A stretch of DNA of 63,573 nt, filler included, from Folioceros fuciformis (GCA_049999805.1; 5 parts of 4 records of this genome joined end to end with filler, not necessarily neighbours in it), one strand, 5' to 3'; counted from the whole stretch's first letter, positions 28,483 through 53,011 are shown. The notes: a model not told the origin generated them from the letters alone. Numbers and translations: made by a program.

Positions 28483-28494
28483 TTAATTAATTAA
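28483..28494. other. Artificial contig linker TTAATTAATTAA inside Ns (also 44460-44471, 52650-52661, 61484-61495)
   Basis: Identical six-frame-stop 12-mer centred in N runs at four sites. Confidence 0.95.
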
Positions 28495-29893: not shown

Positions 29894-32800
29894 ATGGCCA
29901 CTCACTCTGTCTCTTTTAGTTCAGATGTAAAGGACAAGGACAGGTTTAGAGGTACTGGCTACTCAATCTGGCATGTCCGGATGAAAACCATACTTACAGC
30001 GCGTGGTGTCTGGTCTAGTGTTGATGGTTCTCTCACGAAACTTGACCCACAATCTAAACCTGATGAGTATGCCAAGTGGGAGCACAATAATGGAGTTGCT
30101 ATGGCCGTCATTGTCAATGGGCTGGATGCCGCACTTATTCCTAATGTAGAATTTCTTGCAACGGCGAAGGACATCTGAGATCAGCTGGAAAAGACCTATC
30201 ACACCACCACAATGGCCACATTGTCAGTTGTGCGCATGGAGTTCTACACTTTACGCATGAAGGAAGGAGACAAAATGGCTGCACATACCAGCAAGTTTCG
30301 CCACCTTTGAGCACAAATTCAGTCCATCACCAAAACACAAATGACAGAGTCTGAAGCTATCTCCCAACTCCTTACCAGCTTGCCACCCTCTTATCAATCT
30401 TTCGTTACAAGTTTCCAGACTGGTCCAGTTGCCGCAGCCGCAGCTGCTGGACAGCAGGCTGCCCCCATTACCATGGAGGACATGATCGGAGCCCTCTACC
30501 AAGAAGAGCAAACTCGTTTGGCCTCAGCTGGCCTGCACAAGCAATCCAAAGGGGAAAGGGCTTTAGTTGTGAATTTTTGCCCTAAAGGAAAGGGCAAATT
30601 CAGAGGGGGAAATTCCCCAGGACAAGCCAAGGATAGGATTGAATCTTCAAGTTCTAAACGACCAGGCACATGCAACTGGTGTGGCATACCTGGCCACTGG
30701 GCACGCGAGTGTCGCAAGCGTAAAGTTGGTGAGCCCCAGAAGCAGGCTAAACCTGCTGCAAGTGTTGCAGTGAAGGGCAAACCTGTTGAAAAGGCGCTAG
30801 TCAAAATCCTCACCATATGTTTGTCAAGCTCGACACATGATGATGAGAGCTGGTACCTTGACTTCGGGGCTATCACACACATCTGCAAAAAGAGGGAGTT
30901 GTTTACCTCACTCAACCTTGTTCATGTCCATGAAAAGGTACTCCTTGGTGATGAGCAGTCTAGAACTAGTCTGCATATTGAAGGCAGAGGCACGTGTTTT
31001 CCATCTGAAAGATAACACAGACCTCACCATCGAAGATATTCTCTTCGTACCCAGCATGGCTAAAAACCTCATGTCGATGAGTCAGCTCATGCGTCTACGC
31101 ACCTTCACTATGTATGCTGACTCTAAGCACTGCTTGTTCTATAGAAAGGAATCTCCTAGTAGGTGTGTCTTTAAGGGGATTTTAGATAACTCCCTTTACC
31201 GCTTGGACATAACCTGTTCACAACAGGAAGCTAGTCAACATGTTGCACACTCCACTGGTACCCCTTCCCTCAGTCCTGAGCAGGAAGCAGTGCTGTGGCA
31301 TGCGAGACTAGGACATGTGAACAGACGAAAATTGATTGATATGCCCATTACAGAGTGTCACAGAGAACCCCTGCCCAAGTTTTTTAAAAATTTACCTCAA
31401 TGTGAGTCGTGCATTCTAGCTAAACAGAAGGAATCACCCTTTCCGAATGCACCTGCACAAAGAGCTACACAAGTACTTGAGTTAGTCCATGCAGATATCT
31501 CAGGCAAGATCCATTCCCCATCTTTAGGTGGATCTCAATACTTTTTCACATTAACAGATGATTATAGCAGGTATACATAGACATTTCCCATGCGCCTAAA
31601 GAGTGAAACTTTTGAGTATTTTAAGGACTGGCTTCAAATCGCACAAAGGCAATCTGGAATGCTGGTCAAAACTCTAAGGACTGACAATGGCACGGAGTTC
31701 GTCAACTCATCTTTTGACAGTCTTCTTCAGGAACATGGAATTCTCAGGCAGCTTATGGTTCCCTACACACCCCAACAGAATGGTGTGTCAGAACGCAAAA
31801 ATCAAACTCTACTCGGGATGACTAGAAGCATGCTCATCTGGGCAGGTTTACCTCAAGGTTATTGGGCGGAGGCTGTGGTGACAGCAACCTACATCCTTAA
31901 CAGGATATTGACAAGTTCAGTTCCCAACAAAACACCTTATGAGGTCTTTTGGCGCAAGAAACCATCATTGCTACATCTGCGAGTGTTTGGATCACAGGCA
32001 TTTGCTTACATACCTGTTGAGAAAAGGCGGAAACTTGACCCTCGAGCACAAGGCTTGCGTTTTGTTGGGTACAGTGAACAAACTAAAGCATACAAGCTAT
32101 ACAATCCTAAATCTGGATCCATGTTGCTTGCTCGAAGTGTTACTTTTCTTGAGCCACATGCCCCTGTTCCACAATCCTACACAGGGACAGATGCTTTAGT
32201 TCAGAACATCTCTAAAACACCAGATCCGGATGACTTGGAGAACGAGGGGGCTTCCACTTACCCTCTTGACGATATGGATCCTGAAGACATAGTTCCAGTG
32301 GAGGATTTCGCAGTTGAACCTGCCAATGATGCTGCTGCCGATGATCAACCACCTCCTGCACTTGATGTGCCTCACCCTGATGTTGCTGCTGGTCATCACG
32401 ACAACTTCAATCTGCAGGATGACCTGGATCTTCACTTGGGCGATCACCACCCTCCTGACAATGAGGGGGATGCTCTCCCCATTCCAGACAACGCAGGGGG
32501 ATGCTTTTAATGCGCTTAATGATCATGTTGATGTTGCCCCTGTTGACGAGCCACCGGCAGAGGAGCCTGTACTTCGACGTTCCACTCGGCACAGGCCCCC
32601 TCCCGACCAATGGGCAGAGCCCCGCTACCAGTCTATTGATTTTCGTAAAACCTCTTTTGCTAGAGCTGCTGCCTTGGCTACTGCTCGCCCCGATATTCCA
32701 GAGGAGCCAACTACTTTACAGCAGGCCTTTACTGGTCCACAGAGTGAACAGTGGAAGGCTGCAGTGGAGGACGAGTACCAATCTCTCATTAAAAACGAGA

Positions 32801-34287
32801 CTTGGGCACTTGCAGACCTCCCACCTGGACGAAAGGCAATCAGCTGTAAGTGGGCTTTTAAAATAAAGCTTAATGCACAAGGACAAGTGGCCAGATATAA
32901 AGCAAGGCTCGTGGCTCGTGGGTTTACCCAAGTTGAAGGTCTCGACTACCAAGAGACTTTCTCTCCCGTCGTTCGCACGCAGTCCATAAGAATCCTTCTT
33001 GCATATGTTGCCGAATTTGATCTGGATTTACAGCAAATGGATGTTTGCACGGCCTTCTTATATGGTGCCCTTGAAGAAGAGCTATATATGTTGCAGCCTG
33101 AAGCCTATGAAGACAAGCGGCACCCGAACAAAGTGTTAAAGCTTCTTAAGTGCATATACGGTTTGAAACAAAGCGGGCGTGTCTGGTACATTACAATGCA
33201 TGTGTACCTGATCAGCATCGACTTCATCCAAAATGCAGCTGACAGCAATGTGTACAAGCTCACACAAGGAGTTTCGATTGTCATCCTGGCTCTTTATGTG
33301 GATGACGTCATATTTGCTACAAACGATCAAAAGCTGTTAGCAAGTGTGAAGGACAAACTCAGCAGCAGATTCGACATGAAAGACATAGGGGAACTTAAAT
33401 TCTGTCTTGGAATACAACTGCTTCGTGTAAGGGAAGAAGGGTTACTCTTTATCCACCAGTATAAGTACATAAATGAGATACTCAAACGATTCAACCTTGA
33501 CGAGGCCAGGCCAGCCACCACTCCTTATGCTGCTGGTACAAAACTGACCAAGTACCAGTGCCCACAGTCACAAGCTGAGAAATTGGACATGCAGGACATA
33601 CCTTACAGGCATGCTGTGGGGTCCCTAATTTTTGTTGCGAACTGGACGCGCCCTAACATACAGTATTCTGTTAGTACAGTTTCGCAGTTCTTAGAAAATC
33701 CTGCTAGGGTACACTGGGTAGCTGTCAAGAGAATATTTCGTTATCTCAAAGGTACGCACAAGTATGGACTTATGTATAAGAGCACAGGACAAAAACAAGT
33801 TATCTTGAGGGGCTTCACTGATGCCGACTGGGCATTGGATTCAGATTCACGCAGGAGCCTATCCACATACTGCTATTTGCTGGGTTCAGCAGCAGTCACA
33901 TGGAGCTGCAAAAAGCAGGCGTCTGTTGCCCTGAGTTCTTCTGAAGCTGAGTACAAGTCTTTTACTGAAGCAGCAAAAGAGGCTGAATGGGAACGCAGCT
34001 TCCTCAAGGACTTGGGACAGCCGCAGGAGAAACCAACCCTTGTGCTCTGCGACAACACTGCAGCCCTTGAGTTAGTTGAAAGCTCAAAATTCCATACCCG
34101 AACGAAGCACATTGAAGTGCAACATCATTACATACGGGATGTGGTCCACAAAGGTGTTCTTAAATTGGATTACATACAGACAGATGAGAACAGTGCTGAC
34201 ATCCTTACAAAAGGATTGCCTAAGTACAAGCATTACTATCATATGGAAGGCATGGGACTGCGGGATTGTTCTGCCTATTTCGAGTGA
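29894..34287 (+). pseudogene. pol: Copia F gag-pol, few stops and frameshifts
   Basis: DKDRFRG, CNWCGIPGHWAREC, WYLDFGAITH, LRTDNGTEF, YVDD, FTDADWA, RTKHIEVQHHYIRD. Confidence 0.96.
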
Positions 34288-34499: not shown

Positions 34500-34904
34500 C
34501 TACTCCTCATCCCTCAGCCTGCTGAGCATCTTTGCTACACCTTCTAGCTGCTCCACCAGGCTCTGCTTGCCCTCCTTGTCTTTAGCAGGTGTGGGCGGGT
34601 TGACAACAACCTCCTCTTCTGCCATCTTGCCCCACACAAGTGAAATATTCAGCTCCACGTGGTATCCACCAATGCATGTGTGCTGGCCGGTGCAGTAGCG
34701 GCTCTCCCACTCCCAGTCTTTGGCCATATCCTCCCGGGACGCCGGTTGGGTGACCGAGTTGAGTAGTGAATCCACAGAGTCCACAAACGCGTGAGGATGA
34801 AGAGCGCGAGTTGAGATTTGGCGGTTAGCACAGCCAAGTGGAGCCCCATCCTTATAGTCGCGACCTTGATTGCAGAGCAGAAGCTGGATCGCCAGCCCAA
34901 CCAC
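34500..34904 (-). CDS. Candidate antisense ORF (134 aa) in the 3' region of F
   Basis: Open antisense frame between the pol stop and the PPT; no homolog recognised in the window. Confidence 0.35.
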   Translation of the reverse strand: MVGLAIQLLLCNQGRDYKDGAPLGCANRQISTRALHPHAFVDSVDSLLNSVTQPASREDMAKDWEWESRYCTGQHTCIGGYHVELNISLVWGKMAEEEVVVNPPTPAKDKEGKQSLVEQLEGVAKMLSRLRDEE

Positions 34905-35467
34905 CGGATTACGTTCAAGCGCGTGAGGGAGAGACTGTTCCTCGTGACGTCCAGCTGCCTGGTTCTCGTGAGAAGCCCTTCGTTTTCAGGGTTTTGTGTT
35001 TTACTTAACCGTGGTTAGTTTAAGAGGGGGTGTTAGCGTAGGAGTTAAGCCTAACGCACAGTTAATAATATTTATGTTATATGGATTAGGGTTGTCTAGT
35101 GAATAGACACGTACATAGTATTTAAACAATTTTGTTATGCTTATTATTGTAACTTTAACTGTCAGAAGTTCTCTACGCTCTCGCTCCGCTCAACCTTCTC
35201 ATAGGGCCAGGAGCTCATTGGTGGCAGGATGTGCTAGAAGTCTAAATAAGTGGCTGGTGATAGACGGCTAGGCTAGTGGTCCTATTAAAATAATATTTCT
35301 CAAGTTAGAGAGAGGTGAAGTCAGAGAGAGAGAGGCTCCTATAAGATCAGGTGAGCCTGTAGGGGGAAGTAGTCATTCACTTTGGGAGTCAATCTATCAC
35401 TTCGTGAGCTCTTGGAGGTCCTCTCTTCACGAGCTCTTGTGGTCTGTCCCTGCTTGGTTTAGGACCT

Positions 35468-35629
35468 GCAGTGTGTTGCCGGCTATGCAATGTCTGGTAG
35501 GATCGCAAGCCGCGTGTTGCCGGCTATACAATGTCTAGTAGGATCGCAGGCAGCGTGTTGCCGGCTGTACAGTGTCTTGTAGGATCGCGGGCAGCGTGTT
35601 GCCGGTTGTGTAGTGTCTGGTAGGATCAC
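35468..35629 (+). repeat. 41-bp tandem array x4 in LTR N copy 1
   Basis: gcagcgtgttgccggctgtacagtgtctggtaggatcgcag-like units. Confidence 0.92.
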
Positions 35630-35955
35630 AAGGTGTAATGACCAGGGTGAAGGGGCTTGCCCCTAGCTCTTGATTGTAAAGGATGTGTCTTTCTCTCGAC
35701 CTGTCCACTCTTGTTCCCTGTTTGGACAAGTGCTGTAGGCCGGCCATGTTTCATGGCGTCTGGTAAGGTTGTGGGGAGGAGATACCCGAGAGGGGAGTGT
35801 GTTCCCATCTTTCTTTTCTTTGGGGTTAGTCTAGTGACTCTTGCCGGGTAGGAGGAGTCAGTAGGGAAGTGTAGAAGGTAGTGGTGTCATTGTTAGTTGC
35901 TGGTGTTGGTGCTGGAGTGAGAGAGTGAGTGAGGGAAGCTGCAGATCTAAGAGGT

Positions 35956-36177
35956 TGTCAGGATATATAATGCATTTAGGCATAAACATAATATGTTAAT
36001 TAAACCCAGCTGAAACGATGCGGCCAGCAGAACGGCGTGGATGGTAGACCGTTTCGCGTGACAAGTAGGCAGTTATTTAGTAAGGGTGGTTGATGGCATT
36101 TATTATTATTGCAAGACATTCTCATGTGAACAAAAGTATTTAATTTGTATTCTACTCCCTAGATCACATCTCTGACA
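35956..36177. mobile_element. 222-bp solo LTR inserted in LTR N copy 1
   Basis: TGTCAG..CTGACA termini; TSD GAGGT; absent from copy 2 (empty site at ~45461). Confidence 0.93.
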
Positions 36178-36457
36178 GAGGTTAGGGTCGTTGTAGTGAC
36201 TGGAGTGAGTTTGTGGGCACCGAGAGAGGTGCAGCTGACCGCTGGACAGCGAGGCCTCTCCTAGGCCTGATTGGAGCTGGAGGGGAGCCCTCGAATCCAT
36301 CATTGAGTCGATTGAGTCCGACCCTCCATCCACAGCAGCAAGGAACCCCATTGCTCTTTTGTGGGAACGAAACCCAATGTCTCAACGACAGTGGGATAAG
36401 TGTGGCCACTAAAGGTGGAACCCGTTGGCAATCAGTGCCTGGGGTTTTGCCTCCACA

Positions 36458-36868
36458 GTGGCCGACTCAAGTCCTTATTGCGCCATAGAGAGAGCTAGGC
36501 ACCCGGAAGGGTGGCCAACATAGGCAGATAGAAATTTGCTCTCACACGTCATGTTGACCCTGAAGAAGATGGAGGAGCTTGACCACGATCTTCAGTTAGC
36601 CAAACTGAAATCACTCAAGCTGGAGGAACTAGTGGGTAGAGTCCCTTCCCGAGTTCCTCGCATGTTTCCACTTACAGTCCCTGAGATCCAGCAGATGGTC
36701 AAGGAGCTGAAGAATATGGGCTTCGAGAGCACACTTGGAGACAACGAGTCTGGTACAGGTCAGCATCAAAACTCTGCCTTCCTCCTCATCATAGTAAGCA
36801 AGGCGCTGCCACTGTTTGTGTTGATAGTTGATACAGGAACAGCTCACGACTGGATTTTTTACTATTAG
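36458..36868 (+). pseudogene. Antisense accessory ORF of copia I (5' end cut by LTR N; one TAG at 36521)
   Basis: PT*ADRNLLSH...KKMEELDHDL...PLTVPEIQQMVKELKNMGF aligns ungapped with the ORF at 47667-48068. Confidence 0.75.
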
Positions 36869-37096
36869 CTTCATCCATTGAGTGACCCTATTTACATGTG
36901 CAGATGGAAAGGCTGCACAAACATGAGGAATACCACCTAGTGATACACCTATATGTTAACCTACATACAACATAGTAACAGCATAAAGGAATTTCTGTTC
37001 ACAAGAGTGCCAAAGACCTAGGTTGTAAAGCAATCCCTGCGAGGACATGCAACTATTCTTGTGTTGTAACTTTTGCTGGCATAGGTTAGTGGATTT

Positions 37097-37370
37097 CTAG
37101 GTTGCAGTAGGCATAGAGAACACCCTCGGTCCTAAGGCTGCAAGGTGCTTGTAGTGCTTTGGCTTACTTAAGCCCTTTGTGAGGATGTCAGCAATATTAT
37201 CTTCAATACTAACATACTCGACTTTGCCTATGCCCCTTTCAACAACATCTCGGATGTAGTGGTGATACAACTCAATATGCTTGGTTCTAGCATGGAAGCG
37301 AGGGTTAGACACCAAGGCAATAGCTAACATATTGTCACAGAGCAGCAAAGTTGGCTCCTTCAGTGGTAAG
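37097..37370 (-). pseudogene. pol: Copia I RNase H C-terminus, interrupted by H
   Basis: CDNMLAIALVSNPRFHARTKHIELYHHYIRD...ADILTKGL. Confidence 0.92.
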
Positions 37371-40025
37371 TGAAGGAACGCTCAAGGAGCTACATGGTGA
37401 AGGAGAGGAGAGAAGGAGGCAAGGAGGAGAGGAGAAAGAGAGGTCACACTCTCACAATAGAGTCCCACATACAAGGGAGCTCAAGGGGGTATTTATACCC
37501 TCTAGAAGAGTTCCCTAGGAAGCTTCACAAGAAGCCCACAGGAAGCTGCACAAGAAGCTTCCTAGAGATTAAGCTAATCTCAACTAATGATACTTAACTA
37601 GACACTAATCTTAGACTAAACACATTAGTCTAGGCACATTGGGCTCCTACAATCGCCCCCTTAAAGGCCAAATTACCTTGATAGGAGAGTGATCTACCTC
37701 ATGCCCATGAGTGTCCGAGCTTGTGCGAATTGCTCCGAAGAGAGCCCCTTTGTGAGAACATCTGCAGGGTTCTGACTGGTGTGAACTTTGACAAGTTGTA
37801 CCCTCTTGTCTTCCAACACCTCTCGAATGAAGTGATACTTCACTTCCACATGTTTGGTCTTCGCATGAAACACTGGATTCTTCGCCAATTGGATAGCACT
37901 CTGGCTATCACAATGCAACACTGGCAGCTCAACCTTGATCCCCAAATCTCCCACTAAACGAGCAAGCCACATGGCTTCCTTGCACGCCTTAGTCGCTGCA
38001 ACATACTCGGCCTCTGTGGTAGATAGCGTTGTGCAGGATTGCAAACGCGATCGCCATGAAACTGCACCTCTAGTGGACATGAAGACATAACCTGATGTGG
38101 ACCTCCTTTTGTCTATATCCCCTGCATAATCAGCATCCGTATAGCCCACGACAGATGCATGTTCACTACCAAAACATAAGCACAAAGCTTTTGTACCATT
38201 CAAGTACCTCATAACTTCTTTCACTGCCTCCCAATGCTTCCTGCCAGGGTTTGACATAAACCTGCTAACCACTCCCACTGCAAAGGCAATGTCAGGACGT
38301 GTAGCAATCATTGCATACATCAAACTCCCTACAGCTGATGAGTATGGAACCTTCTCCATTTCCGCTTTGTCCTCCGCAGAGCTTGTGCAATCCTTGCTCG
38401 ACAGTTTCACATATGGAGGCAACGGAGTACTTAATATCTTCCCCTTCTCCATATTGAAGCGTTGAAGCACCTTGTTAATGTATTCAGTCTGAGACAAGTA
38501 CAGAAAACGCTTCTGTCTGTCTCGACGAATACGCATGCCAAGAATATGGCTTGCCTCTCCGAAGTCTGTAATGTCAAAGCGACCATTCAACTTTAACTTC
38601 AACGTTGAAATCTCATCACTGTTAGTCCCAGCAATTAGCATATCATCCACATAGAGGACCAGAATGAGCAAGCTTCCATCCTTAGCTTGCTTCGTATAGA
38701 GGCAATGATCCTCATCGCTACGCTTGTAGCCTTGAGAAAGCATAAATGAGTGGAACTTGAAATACCACTCCCTGGGTGCCTGCTTCAAACCATAAAGGCT
38801 CTTCTTTAACCTGCACACCAGATTCTCTTTGCCCTTCTCAATGAAACCCTCTGGTTGTTGCATGAATACCTCTTCCTGAAGATCACCATGCAAAAATGCC
38901 GACTTCACATCCATTTGGACAAGTTCCATGTCGAGCCTCGCAACCAGACCAAGAACACATCGCAAGGTGGTCATTTTGACAACCGGTGAGAAAATCTCAT
39001 CAAAGTCAATACCTTGCTGTTGCTTAAAACCCTTCGCAACCAATCGTGCCTTGTACTAGGGTTTGCCATAATGGGGTATGTCCTTCATCTTATACACCCA
39101 TTTGCATGGCAACGCCTTTTTGCCCTTAGGTAACCGAACCAATTCCCAAGTTTGGTTCTTGTGGAGTGAATCCATTTGCGACTGCATTGCCTTCTCCCAC
39201 TTGTCCTTGTCAGTCACTGACATGGTCTCTTGGTAACAAGAGGGCTCCCCACAATCCGTCAGCATGACATAATCAAGAGATGCAACATACCTGCCAGGAG
39301 GACGTGAAATCCTTCCTGACCTGCGAAGTATTGGCGCCTCGACCGGAGCTGGTTGCACTCTCTCCTCTTCTACAAGTGGAGGAACTTGTTCCTGCACATC
39401 ACGACGTTCAACCTACGCAGGACGGTCAAATCCGTCTTCTTGGAAGACCACCCGTCGCACCTCCACAATTGGAGTAGGTTTCTTGTGCATCTTGGTCTCA
39501 TTGAAGAATACGTCATTGCTGCGAACCATCCTCTTGGCTGTTGGATCCCATAGATGGTATCCCATCTCACCAGATTCACCATAGCCAAGAAAAATACATT
39601 TATTGGACTTGGGTGCCAACTTGTCCCGAAACTCCTTTGGAACATGGTAGTATGCCTCGCAGCCAAATACTCGTAGATGCTTATATGACGGCTGGTTTCC
39701 AGACCACATCTCCTCTGGAACCTGTTCATCCACAGCCCTATTAGGAGATCTGTTAAAAAGATGCACCGCAGTAGCCACTGCTTCTGCCCAAAATCTGTTA
39801 GGCAATCCAGAGTTTGATAACAAACTACGCATCCTCTCCTGGATGGTCCTGTTCATCCGTTCGGCCACACCATTCTGGGGAGGAGTATACAGGGCAGTCA
39901 ATTCTCTCCTGATTCCCTTGGAATCACAGAATGACTGGAAAGCCTTCGAAACATACTCTCCCCCATTGTCTGTCCTTAGACACTTCAGTCGCAGGCCAGA
40001 CTGATTCTCCACAAGGGTGACGAAC
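37371..40025 (-). mobile_element. Ty1/copia element H, 3' part; a distinct lineage resembling Tnt1/Tork
   Basis: 3' LTR 37371-37651 (TGTAGGAG..TCCTTCA), PPT 37652-37664, pol 37694-40025 (LRTDNGGEY, IFSPVVKMTT, YVDD, YTDADYAGD). Confidence 0.92.
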
Positions 40026-43000
40026 TGTTAGAGTTTTCTAGAGCGGAGAGCTTGAGAAAATCAGAACAATGGTAGGCAAAAGAATAATACATTACAATTA
40101 ACAAAAATGTTTAAATACGTAAGTAAAGTGTCTCTTCATATTAGGGCTAATTAATCAAGGCTAATTATGGTAAATATATTATCAACCCTAATCTAATGAC
40201 GTGGTTACCAAGACCTCGTAGGTCTCTTAACACACCCCCTTAACCACGACAGACTAACGCAGTTCGGAGGACACGTCATACAGCCACGGTCAAACAAGCA
40301 GCAGGAAATCGCGATTAAATACAGCAAAGGAGCTTCATCCGCGAGAGCCTGATGCGCCTAACGTGAAGCAAGTCAAGAGTCCAAAACCTGTTGAGAGGCA
40401 AAGCCAACATAATCCACAAGCCCCATCTGATCACGAAAGAAAGAATGCTTGGATGTCGGCAAGGCCTTGGTAAGCAGGTCAGCAACATTGAAATCTGTTG
40501 ATACATAAGAAATCTTGACAATTTGCCTTTCAACGGAGTGTCGCACAAAATGATGCTGAATTTCAATGTGTTTTGTGCGGGCATGGAAACGCGGGTTTCC
40601 AACCAAAGCAATGGTAGACTGATTATCACAAAACACCGTTGTGGGTTGTGCTTGTGGAAACAAGAGGCCAGCCAAGAAACTACGCTCCCACTCTGCCTCC
40701 TTAGCAGAGTCTGTAAGAGCCTTATACTCGGCTTCCGTGGAGGACAAGGCCACGGATACTTGTTTCTTTGAGCTCCAATTTACAACAGCTCTAGATAAGA
40801 AGAAGCAGTAGGCTGACAAACTCCGACGGGTTTCAGGGTCTGTGGCCCAATCGGCGTCGGCATACCCAACGAGTGTGAAATTTGAATCAGGTGAGCCAAG
40901 CCGATAGCAAAGACCATAAGTTGAAGTTCCTCTAAGATATCGCATTACACGCTTGACTGCACTCCAATGATCTTTACCAGGTTTTTCCAAAAATTGGGAC
41001 ACTGAACTAACTGCATGTTGAATGTCAGGCCGTGTCCAGCAAGCAATGTAATTAAGGCATCCTACAGCATGCCTGTATGGAACATCCATCATGGCCTGTT
41101 GCTCTTCTTCACTTTGTGGTGACTGCTGTGAGGTCAGCTTAAAACCTACAACCCCTGGTGTGCTAACAGGTTTCGCTTTGTCCAGATTGAAATGCTTCAA
41201 GGTCTCATTGATATATTTAGATTGATGCAGAATAAGAGTCTTATTGCCGCGGTCTCTGATTAGTTGAACACCAAGTACAAAGGTAAGTGCGCCAATATCC
41301 CTCATAGTATATCTTTTGTGAAGCATTTGCTTTACCCAATCCAAGAGCTTGCGATTATCAGAGGCAAAAATAGCGTCATCAACATAAGGCTAAGATGACA
41401 ACATGGCCATCTCTGGAATACAGATAGACATTCACATCAGCAGGGTTCTTGACAAAACCTATGGACTTAAGGTAAGCGTCTATGTTCTTGTACCATTCAC
41501 GGGCACTCTGCTTCAGCCCATAAATTGTCTTCTTGAGTTTACAAACCCACGTAGGATGTTCAGCGTCAACAAATCCTTTAGGCTGCTCTAGGTAAATTTC
41601 CTCCTCGAGCTCACCATACAAGAAAGCTGTTGAGACATCCATTTGTTCCAAGTCCCAATCGCGTGCAGCAGCTAGGGCTAAAATCATTCTGATGTCCACT
41701 GCATTTTGACTACAGGACTGAAAGTCTCAACATAATCTACACCAGCTACCTGCGAAAAACCTCGAGCGACCAATCTGGATTTATACCTAGCTATCTGGCC
41801 TTGAGCATTTAGCTCGTGTTTAAAAATCCATTTACAACTCACGGCCTTCCTTCCAGCAGGTAGGGGGCATAGCTCCCATGTTTCATTTTGTATAAGAGAA
41901 TTATACTCATCTTGTATGGACGGGATCCAATGATCCTTATCCTTACCAGTGACAGCTTCCTGATAACTGTGGGGTTCGGCAGGATGATCTGTACAGGAAG
42001 AGAACACTAGAGATGGGTTTTGTGTCAGCTTGGACGATTTAGGGATTCTAAAATCCACTGACTCATATGGTTTCTTTTGCCACTGATCCCTAGGGTTTCG
42101 GATTCTGCTTGGGTATCTGCGTTCTTCAGTCACTGGGACGGGAGCATGTAAGACAGGGGACTCAGGAACATCAGGAACTGAGGTGCCTGGGGCTTCATCA
42201 ACATCATCATCAGAAGACGCAGAGGAATGAAGAAGATCAGGTGAGTCTTCAACTAAAGGAAATTCGCCTAAGTCATCAATCTGTGCTGCAGGGGGTTCAT
42301 TGTCTTCAGCATAGTCTTCAGCACTTGCATCACTTGGCAGCCCGTGTGTGTCATTTAATTCAGCGGGATCATCTGGCTGGACAAGAGAATGACCTAAAAC
42401 AGGCAAGTCAAGTGGTGCGGAGGAAGATGACGGTGCAGGGGACTGAGAACCACCCCCTGAACCACCAGCAGCAGCAGCAGGAGGAGCACCCCCTGAAAGG
42501 GGAACCATGTAAACATCCTGAGGATACTCCGAAACTTCAAGGTCAAAGTCATCAGCAGGAGAAGAAACAGCCGAAGAGTCAGCAAAATGAGGAACGGCCG
42601 GGCGGGTAAGCTCCTTGAAAGTAACACTGCGAGCAAAGGTGCAGGTACGAGACAGAGGATCATATAATTTGTAGGCCTTGGTCTCCTCACCATAACCCAC
42701 AAAAATGAGAAGCTTTGCCCGGTCGTCAAGTTTCTTGCGTTGTTTCTTAGGGATATAAGCATAAGCCGGTGAGCCGAAAACACGCAAGTGGAGGAGGCTG
42801 GGGCGGCGGTGCCAAATGACCTCAACAGGAGTCCGAGTCTCCACAGAACTAGTAAGAAGTCGATTTAGAATGTATGTAGCCGTGACAACAGCTTCAGCCC
42901 AGTAGGATTTATCCAAACCTGACCACTCCAGCATGCTGCGTGTCATTCCAAGTAATGTCTGATTCCTCCTCTCAGCCACGCCGTTTTGCTGCTGTGTGTA

Positions 43001-44415
43001 GGGGTTTGGAAATGATACAGGAAATGTGTCAGATTTACGCTCAAGAGGGAAAGTCCATGAATAGCGACTGTAGTCATCGGTAAGTGTCAGGTAATAGTGG
43101 GAACCGCCTAAAGAAGGCACTTGAATTTTGCCTGAGATATCTGTGTGCACCAGATCCAAGACGTTGGAAGTACGGTGAGCAACCGTAGCTGGAAAGGGGA
43201 GTTCCTTTTGCTTAGAAAGGACGAGGGAGTCACACAAGGCAAGTTCCTTAAAACAAGTTGCCAGCGGCTCACGATAACAGTCAGTGTTGGACATCTTAAT
43301 AAGTTTGTTCTTATTTGCATGGCCCAAACGGGCATGCCACAATTGTGCTAATTCTGACTGTGTGTAAGCAGCTGCAAAAATGCTGTGAGCAGATTGGCAA
43401 CATATATCTAGGCGATATAAGTCATCAACCAGAAGCCCACAAGCCACTGGACCATCAGCACCTTTATGGGTGAGCATGCAACCATCAGCTGTAAATAGCA
43501 GGTCAAACTGCCCAAGTTTCATCAACTGGCTAACCAAAAGAAGATGCTTTGCCATGGTAGGAACGTAGAGAACGTTGTCCAACTGCAGTGCAGAGCCATC
43601 CTTAAGTCGGAAAGTACATGATCCTGTACCAAGAATTCTCAAACCTGTTCGGGTAAGTTCATCTCCCAACAACACCTTCTCATTAGTATGTGTTGGAGAA
43701 AAGTTACTAAGCAAGTGACGATTATGGCAAATATGGGTTGTGGCACCCGAATCCAAATACCAAGAATCTGGCTCACAGATTGTGTTGGAATGGCAGACGG
43801 TCATCACAACTGGCTGCTTGCGAGAAGAAGAGGTCGGTGAAGACCTGTCCTTGGAAACTGAGTGGGCCTCAACCGTTTTCTGGGGTTTCTCGGCCTTCCT
43901 CGGTTCTCCATTTTTCTTCTTCTTGCATTTGCGCTCCCAATGCCCTGGAAACCCACACCAGTTGCAGATCGTTTTCCTTGCCCTGGCTTGGATACACCAA
44001 CACCAAGTATATTCTTAATTTTCCCTTGTGGTTTGTTCTTGTTAGAATACAGGACCTTATCAGCTTTTGTCTTTCCTGGTGTATGCATACTGCGACTTTG
44101 CTCTTCCTGTAGAAGGGCACCAACAATATCTGTGAAGGATATGTTGGGTACTTGTCCAGCAGCAGCAGCTTGTTGGGCAACACAAAGAGCTGCCCCATAG
44201 CTTGAAACGAAGGACGGATAACTATGGGGAAGACTAGTTAGAAGTTGAGCCACAGCGTCAACCTCGCCCAGCTGAGAACCAAGTGAGATCAGCTGTGATC
44301 TCAAGTGTCTGAACTTAGCCACGAAGGTGGCTACTTTCTCTCCCTCCTTCATCCGTAATGAGAAGAGTTCCCCACGTACTGTGCACAGTGTAATGATATT
44401 CCTCACATCATAAGT
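40026..44415 (-). mobile_element. Ty1/copia element J inserted in the H integrase; 5' end lost in the gap
   Basis: 3' LTR 40026-40232 (TGTTAAGAG..CTCTAACA on minus), PPT 40233-40242, gag-pol 40373-44415 with WYLDSGATTH, RT and RNase H motifs. Confidence 0.93.
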
Positions 44416-44515
44416 NNNNNNNNNNNNNNNNNNNNNNNNNNNNNNNNNNNNNNNNNNNNTTAATTAATTAANNNNNNNNNNNNNNNNNNNNNNNNNNNNN
44501 NNNNNNNNNNNNNNN

Positions 44516-45741
44516 CTTCTCTATCTTTCCCATTGCGCATGCTCCTCCCCTAGAGGCTGGCTCAGCCACCAAGGGTGAACAGTTGCAGGGGAAGACTAGC
44601 GGGCGACCATCCAGCAAGGAAGAGGCGGCGTCCGCAGATCTTTGAAGATCGGACATCCTCCGAAGTCTGTGGATAGTCTAAGAGGTGGTAGATCCTTGTG
44701 GTGGTAGGGCCAGAAGCCCATTGGTGGCAGGTTGTGCTAGAAGTCTAGATAAGTGGCTGGTGACAGCCGGCTAGGCTATTAAAATAATATTTCTCAAGTT
44801 AGAGAGAGGTGAAGTCAGAGAGAGAGAGAGATAGGCTCCTATAAGATCAGGTGAGCCTGTAGGAGGAGGGAGTCATTCACTTTTGGGAGTCAGTCTATCT
44901 CTTTGTGAGCTCTTGGAGGTCCTTTCTTCATGAGCTCTTGTGGTCTGTCCCTGCTTGGTCTAGGACCTGCAGTGTGTTGCCGGCTGTGCAACGTCTGGTA
45001 GGATCGCAAGCCGTGTGTTGCCGGCTGTACAGTGTCTGGTAGGATCGCAGGCAGCGTGTTGCCGGCTGTACAGTGTCTGGTAGGATCGCGGGCAGCGTGT
45101 TGCCGGTTGTATAGTGTCTGGTAGGATCACAAGGTGTAATGACCAGGGTGTAGGGGCTTGCCCCTAGCTCTTGATTGTAAAGGGTGTGTCTTTCTCTCGA
45201 CCTGTCCACTCTTGTTCCTTGCTTGGTCAAGTGCTGTAGGCCGGCCATGTCTCATGGCGTCTGGTAAGGTTGTGGGGAGGAGATACCCAAGAGGGGAGTG
45301 TGTTCCCTTCGTCCTTTTGTTTGGGGTTAGTCTAGTGACTCGTGCCGGGTAGGAGGAGTCCGTAGGGAAGTGTACAAGGTAGTGGTGTCGTTGCTGGTTG
45401 CTGGTAGTTGTTGGTGTTGGTGCTGGAGCGAGAGAGTGAGTGAAGGAAGTCGCAGATCTGAGAGGTTAGAGTCGTTGTAGTGACTGGAGTGAGTTTGTGG
45501 GCACCGAGAGAGGTGCAGCTGACCGCCGGACAACGAGGCCTGTCCTACGCCTGATCGGAGCTGGAGGGGAGCCCTCGAATCCATCATCGAGTTGATCAAG
45601 TCCGACCCTCCATCCACAGCAGCAAGGAACCCCATCGCTCCTTCGTGGGAACGAAACCCAATGTCTCAACGACAGTGGGATAAGTGTGGCCACTAAAGGT
45701 GGAACCCGTCGGCAATTAGTGCCCGGGGTTTTGCCTCCACA
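44516..45741 (+). mobile_element. Long LTR family N, copy 2, inserted in copia L
   Basis: Same sequence as copy 1, 41-bp array at 44969-45130, ends CCTCCACA, followed directly by the copia linker RPRSEW..YEFVDF. Confidence 0.8.
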
Positions 45742-48485
45742 AGGCCAAGGTCAGAATGGACAGAAGTATCATATGAGTTTGTTGATTTTTGAAAATCAGC
45801 ATGTATGGCAGACTTATCTGTCCCATAAGTGAGGCCTGATCCTTAGTCGTACAATGAAGCCGTCAATGGCCCTGATGGTGATCATTGGAGGGTTAGTACA
45901 AATGAGGAGTATAATAGCTTAATTAAGAACAATACATGGGAATTGATGGACTTACCTTCTGGATGTAAACCCATCACCTGTAAGTGGGTGTTTAAAACAA
46001 AGCTAAAGTCTAATGGCACAATTTCTCGCTATAAGTGTCGACTGGTTGCAAGAGGGTTTAGCCAAATCCCTAGAGTGGATTATGGGGAGACGTTTTCTCT
46101 TGTTGTTAAACCACCATCTATTTGGATTTTACTCGTTATGGCTGCAGAGTTTGACCTTGAGGTTCATCAAATGGATGTTTGTACAGCGTTTCTCCATCGT
46201 GAGCTGGAGGAGGTCCTGTACATGGAGCAGACAAAGGGCTTTGTTAGTACCTAGTGGCCTCAACGAGTATGTAAGCTCCTGAAAACTCTCTACGGATTGA
46301 AACAGATCTCGAGGGCTTGGTATAAACGAATTATGAAGTACCTCAAGCAGAAGGGCTTTATGCAGTGTGGGGCAGACTCCAATGTGTTTTATTTCTCAGA
46401 AGGGGCCGTCTTCGTTATTCTTGCCCTTTATGTCGACGATGCCATCTTGTTGAGTAACAGTAAGTAAGGCAATGTTAAGTAAGGCAAAGGCCTTGCTTCG
46501 AGCAGAGTTTGAGATGATAGACCAAGGAGAATTATAGTTTTGCCTTGGAATTCAGATCCTACGGGATAGGCTTGTTGGAGCAATTATACTACATCAAACC
46601 AAATATCTCAAGGAGATTTTGAAATGTTTTGGTCTTGATGCTGCTCGTCTTGTATCCACTCCCTCAGCAATGGGAGTAAAGCTAATAGCAGACATATCCC
46701 CAACAACTGCTACAGATCTTGCTGACATGCAAGATGTACCTTATGCTGAGGCTGTGGGTTGTCTTATCTTCATTGCCAACTGGACTCGCCCCAATATCTC
46801 CTATGCAATGAGTATTGTTAGTCAATTTCTCAAATGCCCATGCAGAGCTCATTGGGCTGTTGTCAAGAGGATTTATCGATGTCTTAAGGGAACAATTCAT
46901 CTTGGCTTGCATTATACAGCCAATGGACATAAACAGATGGTACTTACCTCTTGGGCTGATGCCGACTGGGCTTCAAATGCCGATACGAGATGGAGCCTTT
47001 CAGCCTATGTGTTGCAACTAGCATCAGGATCTGTAAATTGGTCCTATAAAAAGCAAGCATTGGTAGCGCTGTCAAGTACTGAAGCTGAGTATAAAGCCTT
47101 AACAGATGCTTGTAAGGAAGAGGAGTGGGAGAGGCAATTCCTGGATGGTATTCACTTACCTCAGAAGGAACCAACCCAACTCTTCTGCGATAATGAGTGC
47201 CACTGCCTTGGTCTCGAATCCAAGATTTCATGCACGTACAAAACACATAGAGTTGTATCATCATTTTATACGTGATGCAGCAAAAAGAGGAGTTGTAAAA
47301 GTTGAGTACATACATATAGACAGCAACACTGCCGATGTTTTGACTAAGGGGCTTGTTAAGACAAAGCACTACAAACATGTGGCAGCTCTTGGGTTGAAGG
47401 ATTTTGTTATGCCTACTCCCTCTTCTACAACTTGAGGCCATTACTTGCCCTACGGGAAGGATAAAGAAACCCAAGGACTTGATGTGTTTATTGTCAATTG
47501 GTTAAGGAGGTCTAGACTCCCAACCTGTCCGCTTAAATATCTTCCCGTTGTTGTCCTTCCTGATACAGGCAAATTCAGGTAGTAATAGTTTAGTAGACGA
47601 AGCCAACAAGTTAGAGTACGAAGCATAATTGTCTGCAGTAAACTATATGGTAGCAGTCTCAGTCACTTACCAGTAAACGTGAGTGGGATTATAAGGTTTT
47701 CCACAGTCAACCTCTTCAACGTAACCCATCAGGATTAGCTCCTTCACCAAGTGCTGACACTCTATCTCTGTCAAAGGATGGTTAAGATCCTTAGGATCAG
47801 GCCTGGGAGATAGCAACTCTTGCAACTCATATAGTCTGCAGCTTGACTCCTTTAAGTCCTCTTTCAACTTGTCATACTTCTTCTGAACAACGTGTAGGTG
47901 ACAGAACATGTTCCTGTTAGCCAAAGTCGGTCGTCGCTGAGAATTTGGAAGCGAGGGTTCTTATGTGTCTTTGGTCTTCATCAGACTTGAGCTTGGATGG
48001 CCTATTCCAGGTTGGTGCACAGGAGGTTGCTCTTGGCGAGGTAGAACGCGATTCCTGGTCGGCGCCATCTTGCTGATCAGCGCTACTTCAACTCTGCATG
48101 TTAGAAGTGTGGTGAGCACACATATAAAGACAGTCAGAAATGACTCCATCGCTCATAGCCTTGAAGCCGCACGAGTCAGTGACAATCAGAAGAGTAGGTG
48201 CAACTCTTGAAGAGTGGGAGTAATCACTGCCCGATCTGTTCAGTCGTGGAGAAACCCGTGTAGCCCAAGCGTAACGAGTTTTAATGGTTGTTAATCATTA
48301 ATCTGTGTCTACGTCTAAGTGGGAGTGTTAAGGGTAATAAAAGATATCCTAACACAGATTAACCAGTTATAACCTACTGCTAGTTAGGTTAAAGTGAATA
48401 GACACTTTAGTAAGTATTTAAACATACAGGATTTTGTATTTAGTTAATTCATTCAATGTTTACAACAAGCTGCCGCTTATTATCA
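45742..48485 (+). mobile_element. Ty1/copia element L, 3' part (RT/RNase H 45742-47435; 3' LTR from 48326 to ~48485)
   Basis: YKCRLVARG, YVDD, WADADWA, RTKHIELYHHFIRD; PPT aagtgggag before TGTTAAG; LTR end uncertain. Confidence 0.88.
47667..48068 (-). pseudogene. Antisense accessory ORF of L (~133 codons, one TAA at 47961)
   Basis: MAPTRNRVL...KDT*...RRPTLANRNMFCH...PLTEIECQHLVKELILMGY; homologous to 36458-36868. Confidence 0.78.
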
Positions 48486-49291: not shown

Positions 49292-49683
49292 TGGGAATAC
49301 CGTTTATCTAGAAACGGGAACACCCTTACCTATAAATGGGATTTGAAGTGTTTGCCACAGAAGGTTTGAATGTAGCCCGCAAACTATGGCAATGACGTCC
49401 TTTGAGTTTGGACTCTACCATACATGAGTGTATGTGAGTTGGAAGTCTAGATGAACGACGATGCACATCTATACGAGGTAATGACTATGCGCACATGCCA
49501 CACTCCACCGAGCACATGCGCGTTCCACTGGCTACCGGTGTCAAAGTGGTGGATCACACATGCTTATATTCATAATGTGACGAGTTTTGGGAGTCGTCAT
49601 CCCCACTCTCCTCGATGGTACACGATAATGAACCATAATGCAAACGCACGTATTGGCCCATACATGAGAATGTAACTACTGTT

Positions 49684-50242
49684 TTGCGTGAGATGAGCAA
49701 CGCAACTGGCTTTGGTGAGTTTCTGCAAACCAAGTATCCATCCACTTTGCAGCAGTGGGAAATCTATGGCATGGCAGCCATAGGTTGTGTTGTGAGCTCA
49801 GGGATTTCTTCGCAGATTGCAACGCATGGCTGGAGGGGCCAAGTTGCTTGGGCAAAGATTGTGAGCTCCAGAAAGGAAAGCTTGGCGGCAAGGGTGTCCA
49901 GCAACTCACAACCTGGTGGGGTGCAGCTGGTCAGGGATGATCTGTTGGACCTGATCGTAGGAGAAGAGAGGGGATTGAAGACACAGAAGGATACGCAAAA
50001 GTGGGCACAAATAGTCAAGGCTGCCGATGCTCTAGTAGCGTGGGGAGCTCACACCATTACTACAGATGATTCGCTGATAGCAGCATGGAGGATGTTGTGG
50101 ACTTCTGAAAAGGAGCAGCTCTTTATTGTGGAGATGGCGCCGTTGTTTGGAACTGAAGTGGAGGACATCCTCCAGGTTCGTGCAACATGGTTGGGGCCGT
50201 GCAATGTGCTATGCGTATTGTGCATCGTGCATAGGTGCATAG
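49684..50242 (+). CDS. Unassigned ORF (~186 codons), ending at the next LTR
   Basis: Long open frame with protein-like composition; no motif recognised. Confidence 0.3.
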
Positions 50243-50534
50243 TGTTACAATAATAGTATCCCTAGCATTAATTAGGGCACGATTCACTTGATACGAAACG
50301 ACATGCTACTAAGCGGTTGCGTTCGAAGGCACCACTTTACCAGAACACATAACCTGTACAGACCACGAACGTAATTGATTCTCTTGCTTGCACGCTGATC
50401 GATCACGGATGCATTGAACATTTTCATGGTATCAGAGCAGGTCGCAATCGCGCACCTGCCATCTCTGCCACTCAATCACGACAAATAAACCCAACCATCA
50501 TGCCTGGCTCTAAAAAGAAAGAGCGCAAGCTTAG
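50243..50534 (+). mobile_element. LTR (~50243-50426), PBS (50427-50438), leader and ATG (50500) of an LTR retroelement
   Basis: TGTTAC..TTTTCA followed by a perfect TGGTATCAGAGC; MPGSKKKERKLR. Confidence 0.75.
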
Positions 50535-50613
50535 AATGATTAATAGGGACAGTTGGGGGCATTCGTATTTCATTGTCAGAGGTGAAATTCATGGATTTAT
50601 GAAAGACAAACTT

Positions 50614-50654
<41 letters not shown>

Positions 50655-51211
50655 TGAAAGTTGGGGGCTCGAAGACAATTAGATACTGTCCTAGTCTCAA
50701 CCATAAACGATGCCGATTAGGGATTGGCGGATGTTAATTTGATGTCGTTGCCAGCACCTTATGAGAAATCAAAGGTTTTGGGTTCCGGGGGGAGTATGGT
50801 TGCAAGGCTGAAACTTAAAGGAATTGACAGAAGGGCACCACCAAGAGTGGAGCCTGCGGCTTGAGTTGACTCAACACAGGGAAACTTACCAGGTCCAGAC
50901 ATAGCAAGGATTGACAGATTTAGAGCTCTTTCTTGATTCTATGGGTGGTGGTGCATGGGCGTTCTTAGTTGGTGGAGTGATTTGTTTGGTTAATTCCGTT
51001 AACAAACAAGACCTCAACTTGCTAACTAGTTACACGAAGAACCTTCTTCGTGGCCAGCTTCTTAGAGGGACTGTTGGCTTCTAGCCAATGGAAGTCTGAG
51101 GCAATAACAGGTCTCTGATGCCCTTAGATGTTCTAGGTTGCACGCGCGCTACACTGATGAATTCAACGAGTTCAACCACCTTGTCCGAAAGGAACGAGTA
51201 ATCTTTTGATT

Positions 51212-51243
<32 letters not shown>

Positions 51244-51322
51244 ATTGATCTTCAACGAGGAATTCCTAGTAAGCACGAGTCTTCAGCTCGCGTTGATTAC
51301 GTCCCTTCCCTTTGTACACACT

Positions 51323-51359
<37 letters not shown>

Positions 51360-51417
51360 CTTCGGATTGCGGCAACGACGGCGAGCAACCGCCGGCGACG
51401 TTGTGAGAAGTTCATTA

Positions 51418-51473
<56 letters not shown>

Positions 51474-51487
51474 AGGAAGGATCATTG
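50535..51487 (+). rRNA. 18S: 18S rRNA, 3' half, pseudogenised
   Basis: aaacttaaaggaattgac, gtcgtaacaaggtttccgtaggtgaacctg..ggatcattg; many CpG-decay changes at invariant sites (ttgacAgaagg, aacAaacAagacc, acacTgcccg). Confidence 0.97.
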
Positions 51488-51846
51488 ACACAAATCAAAC
51501 AAATGAAATCGCGAACTGTTTTCGTTAGAGGAGCGGCGTTCAGAGGCCCCGCCGGCACACCCAGTGCCCCTCCCCCATCGCTTGTGATGGGGGAAGCCAA
51601 TCGGCGCACGCTGGCCTCGGCGATGCGGTGTGTCGGGACAACCCCCCACTGTGGCGTGTGTCCCGTCCCTCGATGGGGCAGGACCGGGTTGGACCCCCTA
51701 CTCCCGGGAGCTGCAGCTGCCGGGGGTCCCCTTTTGCCCTCAAAGCACAAGAGACAAGTGTGCACGAGTCAGGAGGCCCATGTTGGAGCCTGAAGAAGTG
51801 CGTGCGTGCTGAAAAGCCGCACACAAGAAAGAGACTAAAGCAAGTT
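51488..51846 (+). other. ITS1
   Basis: Spacer between the 18S end and the 5.8S start. Confidence 0.9.
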
Positions 51847-52002
51847 TACTCTCAGCAACGGACATCTTGGCTCTTGCAACGATGAAGAACGCAGCGAAAT
51901 GCGATACGTAGTGTGAATTGCAGAATTCCACGAATCATCGAGTCTTTGAACGCAAGTTGCGCCCGAGGACTTGTTCCAAGGGCATTTCTGCCTTAGCGTC
52001 GT
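51847..52002 (+). rRNA. 5.8S: 5.8S rRNA
   Basis: actctcagcaacgg..gatgaagaacgcagcgaaatgcgatacgtagtgtgaattgcagaattcc..tctttgaacgcaagttgcgccc. Confidence 0.97.
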
Positions 52003-52285
52003 GTGCTCGCAAACGCCCGTCCCCTCACCTGTTGCTCTTGCTGAGGGGTGGGGGAAAAGATGCGGCGAAGTGAATGGCTGGCTGTTCGGGAGCGCCCCCA
52101 AAGCTCGAAGGAAAAAAAGGAGGGAGATGTCCCGGTCGGCTGAAATGCAGGGAGTCTGGGCAAGGCGTGGCAAGGCCCCGCGGCCAAGGTGATTTTGCCC
52201 GACTGGGCGGAAATTGTTTGCGCGCCCGACCTGAAGGTACTCGAATCAGGTGGGCACGGTGATCGCGCTGGTCTGGCATCCAATA
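52003..52285 (+). other. ITS2
   Basis: Spacer between 5.8S and 28S. Confidence 0.9.
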
Positions 52286-52329
52286 TGACCTCAGATCAGG
52301 CAAGGCTACCCGCTGAGTTTAAGCATATC

Positions 52330-52361
<32 letters not shown>

Positions 52362-52363
52362 TC
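52286..52363 (+). rRNA. 28S: 5' end of 26S/28S rRNA, interrupted by LTR N
   Basis: gacctcagatcagg..acccgctgagtttaagcatatcactaagcggaggaaaagaaactaac. Confidence 0.95.
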
Positions 52364-52605
52364 TGTGGAGGCAAAATGTGGAGGCAAAACCCCGGGCACT
52401 GATTGCCGACGGGTCCCACCTTTAGTGGCCACACTTATCCCACTGTCGTTGAGACATTGGGTTTCGTTCCCACGAAGGAGCGATGGGGTTCCTTGCTGCT
52501 GTGGATGGAGGGTCGGACTTGATCAACTCGATGATGGATTCGAGGGCTCCCCTCCAGCTCCGATCAGGCGTAGGACAGGCCTCGCTGTCCGGCGGTCAGC
52601 TGCAC
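52364..52605 (-). mobile_element. LTR family N copy 3 terminus, with a duplicated 13-bp end
   Basis: Reverse complement of the copy 2 end; TGTGGAGGCAAAA at 52364 and again at 52377. Confidence 0.88.
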
Positions 52606-53011
52606 NNNNNNNNNNNNNNNNNNNNNNNNNNNNNNNNNNNNNNNNNNNNTTAATTAATTAANNNNNNNNNNNNNNNNNNNNNNNNNNNNNNNNNNNNNNN
52701 NNNNNGCAACACATGCTCTCAAGGCTTTGAGGAGATATTCATCTCAACTCCACTATACTGAACTTTTTCTTAGCCCTTGGGCTAGGTCCCCTTTTATACA
52801 CAAGCTCAAGTCACTAACTTAGCAACTACTTACTTAAGCACTTACTTAAGCCTTAAGCTATTATTCACTACCACACACTTTTTCTAGGGCTGCATGCTTC
52901 TCATGCTCTTAGTAACCTGCTTTGCTAAACATGCCTCTGCATAGAGCTTACTTGCTTGGCACTCAAACCAACGTTGTTACTTCCTCCCCCACTAGGAAAG
53001 AATCAGTGCCC

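Follow-up and report, generated by a model that had tools for sequence, protein, structure and literature searches.

A candidate antisense accessory gene downstream of pol in a low-copy Ty1/copia lineage of Folioceros fuciformis

Introduction

Additional antisense open reading frames (ORFs) that lie between pol and the 3' long terminal repeat (LTR), called aORF-3R, are carried by Ty3/gypsy LTR retrotransposons, and named examples are gene23 of maize Grande, the ORF of rice RIRE2, TRP28 of Silene Retand and the ORF of Phaseolus PvRetro13 (PMC7264820, PMC11963269). Boty of Botrytis also carries an additional antisense ORF, and the antisense proteins of gypsy elements and deltaretroviruses are reported to show nuclear localisation or predicted DNA binding, with no established function (PMC7264820, PMC11963269). 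Here we describe a stretch of DNA from Folioceros fuciformis (GCA_049999805.1; 63,573 nucleotides including filler, five parts of four records joined end to end, hereafter the window), in which two remnants of Ty1/copia elements, C and L, each have an ORF downstream of pol on the opposite strand. The two frames share a conserved block of 70 codons, which we conclude is probably part of a selected small antisense accessory ORF of the element.

As far as the consulted text extends, conserved antisense ORFs are named for gypsy elements and for Boty, while copia elements are credited with sense ORFs in SIRE and with antisense promoters. SIRE, a Ty1/copia lineage, carries a sense extra ORF, eORF-3'F, described as 'env-like' and present in 74% of SIRE elements; the survey concerned covered 582 copia elements and counted extra ORFs from 250 codons (PMC6317226). 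Antisense promoters of copia elements are on record for AtRE1 of Arabidopsis and Mdoryco1-1 of apple (PMC7264820), which are reported as promoters and not as a conserved coding sequence. A full-text search of the literature, of limited coverage, found no copia element described as having a conserved antisense ORF.

The locus in F. fuciformis resembles aORF-3R in that the frame lies on the strand opposite gag-pol, downstream of pol, is inherited within a lineage and has a function that is not known. In contrast to aORF-3R, the carrier is a Ty1/copia element, as identified by RVT_2, the frame is only about 100-135 codons long, and the LTR that adjoins the frame in copy C is foreign to the carrier. 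The frame is far shorter than the ORFs of more than 600 bp that the Retand survey counted in pol-3' LTR regions of 2.9-6.6 kb. Unlike Retand TRP28, it has no Transposase_28 or SMC match and no similarity in the databases searched. The extra ORF of SIRE likewise lies downstream of copia pol, but that ORF is sense and was counted only from 250 codons upwards, whereas in C and L stops close the sense frames, which show no conservation. A further comparison is with HBZ, a basic leucine zipper (bZIP) protein, since the predicted long helix of the block is reminiscent of a zipper, as in HBZ. Unlike HBZ and APH-2, the block has no bZIP or other family match. What it shares with HBZ of human T-cell leukaemia virus type 1 (HTLV-1) and APH-2 of HTLV-2 is that each is a small antisense protein near the 3' end of a retroelement, an analogy made in PMC11963269.

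Results

Two antisense frames share a gapless block of 70 codons

Copy C belongs to the carrier fragment that an earlier sequence-only reading of the stretch had called element I, and the other copy is L. The frames and the block within them are as follows.

36515 to 36724, plus strand: conserved 70-codon block of copy C, antisense to the adjoining copia RNase H stub (tblastn and tblastx)
36458 to 36868, plus strand: the full frame of copy C, with an internal stop (36521-36523) among its 137 codons; end stop 36866-36868
47721 to 47930, minus strand: conserved 70-codon block of copy L, antisense to the pol of L
47667 to 48068, minus strand: whole frame of copy L, 134 codons; ATG 48068-48066, internal stop 47963-47961, end stop 47669-47667

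The translations of both whole frames were as the sequence-only reading had given them, and its gapless alignment of 70 residues with 26 identities was reproduced by tblastn, which matched C 36515-36724 with L 47930-47721 (26 of 70 residues identical, 37.1%; E 3e-9 and 7e-9). The single premature stop that it had reported in each copy was found at 36521-36523 and at 47963-47961, and the likeness that it had noted between the RNase H ends of the two carriers amounts to 72% over 75 residues (37330-37106 against 47193-47417). No further tblastn match to the block in the 63.5-kb window was better than E 0.19. The Smith-Waterman score of the two products was 102, compared with 26.0 ± 4.7 for shuffled residues (0 of 5000 reached 102) and 27.4 ± 4.1 for shuffled DNA with the best of three frames taken (0 of 1000). 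The conserved columns of the block read PT.A.RN...H, KK...L..DL, L.EL, P and PLT..E.Q..VKEL..MG[FY].

In tblastx the similarity was confined to the antisense frame pair and was the sole significant match of the region, and blastn of C against L gave just a 20-nt match inside the block. No second conserved stretch was found between the C and L regions on the antisense strand, and no related antisense frame was found downstream of pol in the other copia elements of the window. Both copies in the window are dead, each with an internal stop and a broken carrier pol, and the C frame is additionally cut by a nested LTR.

Coding constraint on the antisense strand

The gapless 210-nt alignment of the block has a DNA identity of 48%, which is distributed over the antisense codon positions as 0.49, 0.60 and 0.36 (phase-heterogeneity permutation p 0.014). 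The adjoining RNase H end, coding on the other strand, gives 0.77, 0.81 and 0.37, so that third-position identity is 36% in the block and 37% in the RNase H end. The proportions of differing synonymous (pS) and nonsynonymous (pN) sites are 0.80 and 0.45 in the block and 0.92 and 0.19 in the RNase H end. With pS at 0.80 and 0.92, synonymous sites are saturated in block and RNase H alike, and third positions behave the same; because of this saturation no ratio of nonsynonymous to synonymous rates (dN/dS) can be given for the block. Of the purifying selection proposed in the earlier reading, an antisense protein-coding constraint is supported. Purifying selection, as far as it can be read from these alignments, is weaker on the block than on RNase H.

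That reading had also named DNA conservation no better than in the flank as a result that would refute it, and the comparison came out the other way. Between pol and the block no alignment is possible (C 36725-37105 against L 47418-47720; global z of 0.27 against shuffles), compared with a z of 9.0 for the DNA of the block, and in the 57 nt upstream of the block only 9 of 57 positions are identical. Judged from these comparisons, neutral sequence of such age is erased between C and L.

A null was constructed in which the observed DNA divergence was fixed and the substitutions were redistributed among positions, in 20000 trials and with the roles of the copies also swapped. The BLOSUM62 sum of the antisense frame is 110, whereas the null gives -3.7 ± 17.8 with a maximum of 69, and 0 of 20000 trials reach 110; swapping the roles of C and L led to the same outcome. 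The null expects 3.4-4.0 stops per 70 codons, where 0 and 1 are observed. The other frames of the same 210 nt sum to -12 and -33 on the antisense strand and to -4, 49 and -21 on the sense strand, and the sense-strand frames of the element have 1-4 stops over the block in each copy. On this evidence from two aligned copies, protein-level constraint on the antisense strand is the sole reading that fits.

Further copies in sequencing reads

Read contigs of the sequencing runs X1 to X4 were aligned to 36100-41400 at 80% likeness; X1 and X2 are DNA of the same organism as the window and come from one sample. The summed contig depth in X1, which is a rough guide and not a copy number, was as follows.

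LTR left of 36457: 55000-135000
36631 to 37338 (block, spacer and RNase H stub): 64-185
37339 to 39993: 10000-40000
40171 to 41400: 64-600

Depth in X1 is 64-84 over the block and 78-185 over the RNase H stub, and single variant contigs in the block have a depth near 10; the block region appears to be present in a handful of copies. Several further copies of the block at 80% likeness or more are found among the contigs of one sample. A 420-nt contig, for example, spans 36463-36756 and differs at 54 places in those 294 nt, with 3 gaps.

Where C has its internal stop, 4 of 4 X1 contigs read a sense codon, which accounts for the whole depth of 44; in X2 the sense reading makes up 53 of a depth of 67.9. 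Among the best-supported read variants, nine lie inside the frame, one of them a C-to-T change seen in X3 alone. In X3, C>T (170 places) and G>A (301 places) strongly outnumber other changes, as in a bisulfite-type library, and for this reason its variants were set aside. Five of the other eight are synonymous, all at third positions, and the three non-synonymous ones are the stop, a K to E change (E being the residue of L at that column) and a V to I change. This pattern of variants within the C family fits purifying selection. The search for sequencing runs listed no RNA run that contains the sequence. The contigs of X4, which we guess to be RNA, fall on the high-copy LTR and have zero depth over 36631-37161; they give no evidence on expression.

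Carrier element and layout around the block

The carriers and the spacers between the convergent stop codons are as follows.

37097 to 37381, minus strand: RNase H end stub of copia element C, pol stop 37099-37097 (tblastn with the pol proteins of the window)
45742 to 47434, plus strand: pol remnant of copia element L, reverse transcriptase (RT) to RNase H, with frameshifts; pol stop 47432-47434
36869 to 37096: spacer between convergent stop codons in C, 228 nt, unalignable with the spacer of L
47435 to 47666: spacer between convergent stop codons in L, 232 nt, with a minus-strand AATAAA (47492-47487) and a plus-strand purine-rich run (47453-47468)

RVT_2 was identified in L at 45847-46254 (Pfam E 5e-31), followed by a collinear tblastn match to the RNase H end at 47408, and it is by RVT_2 and then RNase H that the carrier type of L is Ty1/copia; C keeps only the last ~95 codons. 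The pol of L is cut on its 5' side at 45741/45742 by a high-copy LTR ending at 45741. The closest relatives of the L RT-RNase H in a collection of 5.8 billion proteins reach at most 55% identity, the named ones coming from diverse eukaryotes; since relatives reach only 55%, the carrier lineage is poorly sampled. A scan of metagenome contigs for the RNase H end gave two distant loci (41-45% identity), neither of them with the block (best tblastn E 0.15).

The layout is collinear in C and L, with gaps of 228 and 232 nt between convergent stops, and the block begins 287 nt past the pol stop in L and 372 nt past it in C. The sequence-only reading had placed the frames between pol and the 3' LTR. 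They are indeed downstream of pol in both copies, but the adjoining LTR in C is foreign and none could be delimited for L; for neither copy does the window contain an LTR pair of the carrier, its primer binding site or its target duplication. The purine-rich run at 47453-47468, 20 nt after the pol stop, could mean that the block sits inside L's own LTR. Depth in C is no higher over the block than over the RNase H stub, which is a weak argument for an internal position. Downstream of the L frame there is ~1.8 kb of unassigned sequence, then a PAP_fibrillin-like ORF and then a ribosomal DNA (rDNA) fragment.

An open frame of 185 codons also lies antisense to the RNase H end of L (46944-47501, minus strand). 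It has no Pfam match and is closed in copy C. Open frames are usual on the strand complementary to a coding region, and this is probably one of them.

Predicted product

The sequence-only reading had expected a small helical protein, and AlphaFold2 likewise predicts a mostly helical product. Run with a two-row alignment on a 97-residue piece of L, it gave a helix at residues 13-50 (block-mean predicted local distance difference test, pLDDT, 83-96), a proline-rich break and then short helices at 56-60 and 65-78, with a mean pLDDT of 71.9 and a predicted template modelling score (pTM) of 0.37. In the long helix, hydrophobic residues recur by eye at a spacing of 3-4 in both copies. The product is predicted to begin with a variable, proline-rich and basic N-terminal part, to continue with a helix of ~38 residues with heptad-like hydrophobic spacing, and to end, after a predicted proline-rich linker, in a short helix closing on VKELxxMG[FY]. 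A homodimer prediction of the block scored 0.01, 'no answer', which is evidence neither way.

Neither copy matched Transposase_28 (PF04195) or BTRD1 (PF17660) in hmmscan against Pfam at E ≤ 10. A sequence search of PDB returned one row at E 0.92. The comparison with PDB by Foldseek, a check that had been suggested beforehand, gave three rows with E of 5.6 or more and no fold match. Leads from the ESM Atlas were dropped, their scores being below 0.9 and their families in disagreement (HA2_C/OB_NTP_bind for L, XPG_N for C). Scans with the block pattern selected 596 stretches in metagenome contigs and 85 in viral ones, none of which was confirmed as a relative.

Mosaic structure of the C region and other features of the window

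The earlier reading had treated element I as one element. Instead, the region is a mosaic of at least four elements, with three copia pol remnants (A, B and C) lying between its supposed LTRs (tblastn).

44014 to 40376, minus strand: remnant A, copia pol from protease to RNase H, with gag at 44463-43804
39889 to 37697, minus strand: remnant B, copia pol from part of integrase to RNase H
37381 to 37097, minus strand: remnant C, the last ~95 codons of RNase H
37371 to 39993, minus strand: high-copy copia fragment (B) inserted in the RNase H of C; part of integrase, RT, RNase H and a short LTR of at most 323 nt
35202 to 36457: LTR of a very abundant family, foreign to the block (self-blastn), cutting the upstream end of the C frame

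Only C is close to L in its RNase H; against A, C reaches 58% and L 51-54%. By summed depth the B family is ~100x more abundant than C. In other copies of B, seen as loose ends, position 37371 is preceded by the reverse complement of a tRNA-iMet primer binding site, and because of this sequence we place the end of the short LTR of B at 37371 and regard B as inserted into the RNase H of C.

At the junction 36457/36458 the LTR meets the C frame without a polypurine tract, and the X1 depth falls from ~135000 to ~84. As this foreign LTR abuts at 36457, the C frame is cut 19 codons upstream of the block. Other copies of its family lie at 44705-45741 and, inverted, at 52377-52605 (self-blastn). On its left, the LTR at 35202-36457 adjoins the 3' LTR of another element (ending at 35201); the corresponding 5' LTR end of that element, together with its primer binding site, lies at 28539-28631. 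The pairing of 35202-36457 with 44705-45741 as the LTRs of one element was rejected: the two are 91-94% identical, whereas 45513-45741 and 52605-52377 are 98.7% identical, and the pair lies on different contigs with no polypurine tract or primer binding site at either junction. Blocks of 44 N, 12 letters and 44 N occur at 28439-28538, 44416-44515, 52606-52705 and 61440-61539; one block of 100 N and four of 10 N are also present. Contigs end within LTRs, and the long-range order of the window is scaffold-level only.

Another antisense frame, of 161 codons (34500-34985, minus strand), lies downstream of the pol of the plus-strand copia at 30659-34284, probably inside the 3' LTR of that element (ending at 35201). 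Neither a resemblance to the block nor a Pfam match was found for this frame. The rDNA fragment (50184-52382, plus strand) comprises small-subunit (SSU, 50184-51487), 5.8S (51847-52001) and the start of large-subunit sequence (52309-52382). The SSU model was matched whole (1-1831) in only 1304 nt, which indicates deletions, and the fragment is cut by the inverted abundant LTR at 52377-52605. Position 50427 was dropped as the primer binding site of another element, since it lies inside the 18S part. An ORF at 49639-50253 (plus strand) matches PAP_fibrillin at ~49933-50179 (E 1.1e-11, profile positions 4-85 of 198), and the match ends a few bases before the 18S fragment starts, an odd juxtaposition. 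The PAP_fibrillin match hints that the host is a photosynthetic eukaryote, and the 5.8S motif at 51915-51928 differs from the form of flowering plants. Positions 2001-4000 stand apart from the remainder of the window, with 65% G+C and, on each strand, long frames rich in proline and alanine.

Discussion

We consider the block to be, with somewhat better than even probability, the conserved core of a selected small accessory ORF of the element. The extra gene would have ~100-135 codons, would lie antisense downstream of pol in one low-copy Ty1/copia lineage, and would have been inherited by the sublineages C and L, which diverged as active elements until synonymous sites were saturated. A promoter on the element's 3' side would drive its transcription, convergent with that of pol. 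On the minus strand of L, a TATA-like TTTATATG is present at 48128-48121, 53-60 nt upstream of the ATG, the ATG at 48068 stands in the context AAGATGGCG, and AATAAA at 47492-47487 follows the stop by 175 nt; TTTATATG, the ATG context and AATAAA would suit a small convergent gene. By analogy with known antisense proteins, the product may be a trans-acting regulator or adaptor that serves the life cycle of the element itself. More tentatively, and at somewhat less than even odds, we suggest a new family of small helical antisense proteins in this Ty1/copia lineage, maintained by selection from a time before synonymous sites became saturated and serving as the element's own trans-acting regulator. 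The sequence-only reading had offered anti-silencing or trafficking as possible roles; we found no evidence behind either.

Among the other explanations, it is unlikely that the block is a passenger, that is, a fragment of a host gene or mobile element that was captured or nested in reverse in the ancestor of C and L and has since been decaying without a role. Such an origin would agree with the lack of a homologue or known domain, with both copies being broken, with the low copy number of the family and with the limitation of conservation to 70 codons, and transduction of host sequence by LTR retrotransposons is described in PMC7264820. Neutral decay, however, erased the adjacent spacer (z 0.27) and would bring ~3.4-4 stops per 70 codons, and the amino-acid similarity of the block was reached by 0 of 20000 divergence-matched nulls. 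Furthermore, because RNase H shows a pN of 0.19 with a pS of 0.92, the C and L lineages diverged while active, and the block was copied along throughout. Still less probable, in our judgement, is that the block forms a single exon within a longer antisense gene that undergoes splicing, and that the frames of 134-137 codons are not the real protein. The end stop of L does lie inside CTG/GTAAGT (GGTAAGT, 47667-47673, minus strand), a sequence strongly resembling a splice donor, MAFFT aligns this site with GTAAGC in C (36794-36799, plus strand), and the similarity stops abruptly at MG[FY]. But the donor-like sites are 50 and 69 nt after the block and in different phases, and no second conserved antisense block is found toward pol or in the 630 nt examined beyond the ATG of L.

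We regard it as very improbable that the block is a conserved non-coding element, such as an enhancer in U3, a structured RNA or a promoter for antisense transcription, in which the open frames are incidental. Regions close to LTRs do contain cis elements, antisense promoters are reported for the copia elements AtRE1 and Mdoryco1-1 in PMC7264820, and the purine-rich run 20 nt after the pol stop could put the block in the LTR of L. Against this stand the three-base phase (p 0.014), an amino-acid similarity ~6 standard deviations above the DNA-level null and a blastn match of just 20 nt within the block; the depth of the block (64-84) is also not above that of the stub (78-185), where an LTR would be expected to reach at least 2x, although depth is a rough guide. 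Finally, the idea that two frames rich in lysine, glutamate and leucine resemble each other by chance is refuted and has a negligible probability, compositionally simple as the helix is: 0 of 5000 residue shuffles and 0 of 1000 DNA shuffles reach the observed score, and C and L are collinear in where the block stands relative to pol.

Several observations nevertheless weigh against a selected accessory ORF. The block is known from only two DNA sequences, each with an internal stop, and no intact copy was seen. Conservation ends abruptly at both ends of the block, and the tails differ in length (46 and 17 codons). The block could lie either in the internal region or in the carrier's own LTR. 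All DNA runs come from a single sample, the variants considered are a best-supported subset with 937 others outside it, and the family is low-copy, so that abundance gives no demonstration of selection for transposition. The structure model was built from an alignment of two sequences.

Homology searches point the same way. The two open pieces returned no protein in word-indexed searches, and Pfam at E ≤ 0.01 gave no family for either copy. At E ≤ 10, copy C alone had matches (Cullin_Nedd8 0.068, UBA_NBR1_C 0.2 and TRM 0.28). The motif MG[FY] has some resemblance to UBA; the UBA_NBR1_C match covers 13 residues of copy C with 12 bits, and L has none, so no UBA-like domain is assigned. An exhaustive HMMER search of 1.84 billion representative proteins returned one match, the bacterial repeat protein P0001, which was rejected as a homologue: its 58 bits are summed over 8 near-identical repeats of ~7 bits each and cover only profile positions 60-96. 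The BTRD1 repeat in P0001, a polyglycine hydrolase-like structural repeat with a 50-residue profile, carries the motif NLTxxxxQQLVxDLxxxGF, which resembles PLTxxExQxxVKELxxMG[FY]; this protein is bacterial and has a lysyl oxidase domain, and the likeness of the motifs is taken as chance.

The extra genes of LTR retrotransposons are poorly understood. If the block is indeed part of a selected antisense accessory ORF, the antisense-ORF strategy would have arisen in both superfamilies, and if the product is also the element's trans-acting regulator, it would be a copia counterpart of the Grande gene23 and Retand TRP28 proteins or of HBZ. Length cut-offs such as 250 codons would then overlook short extra ORFs, and the 70 residues described here would provide a compact test case for the function of such proteins.

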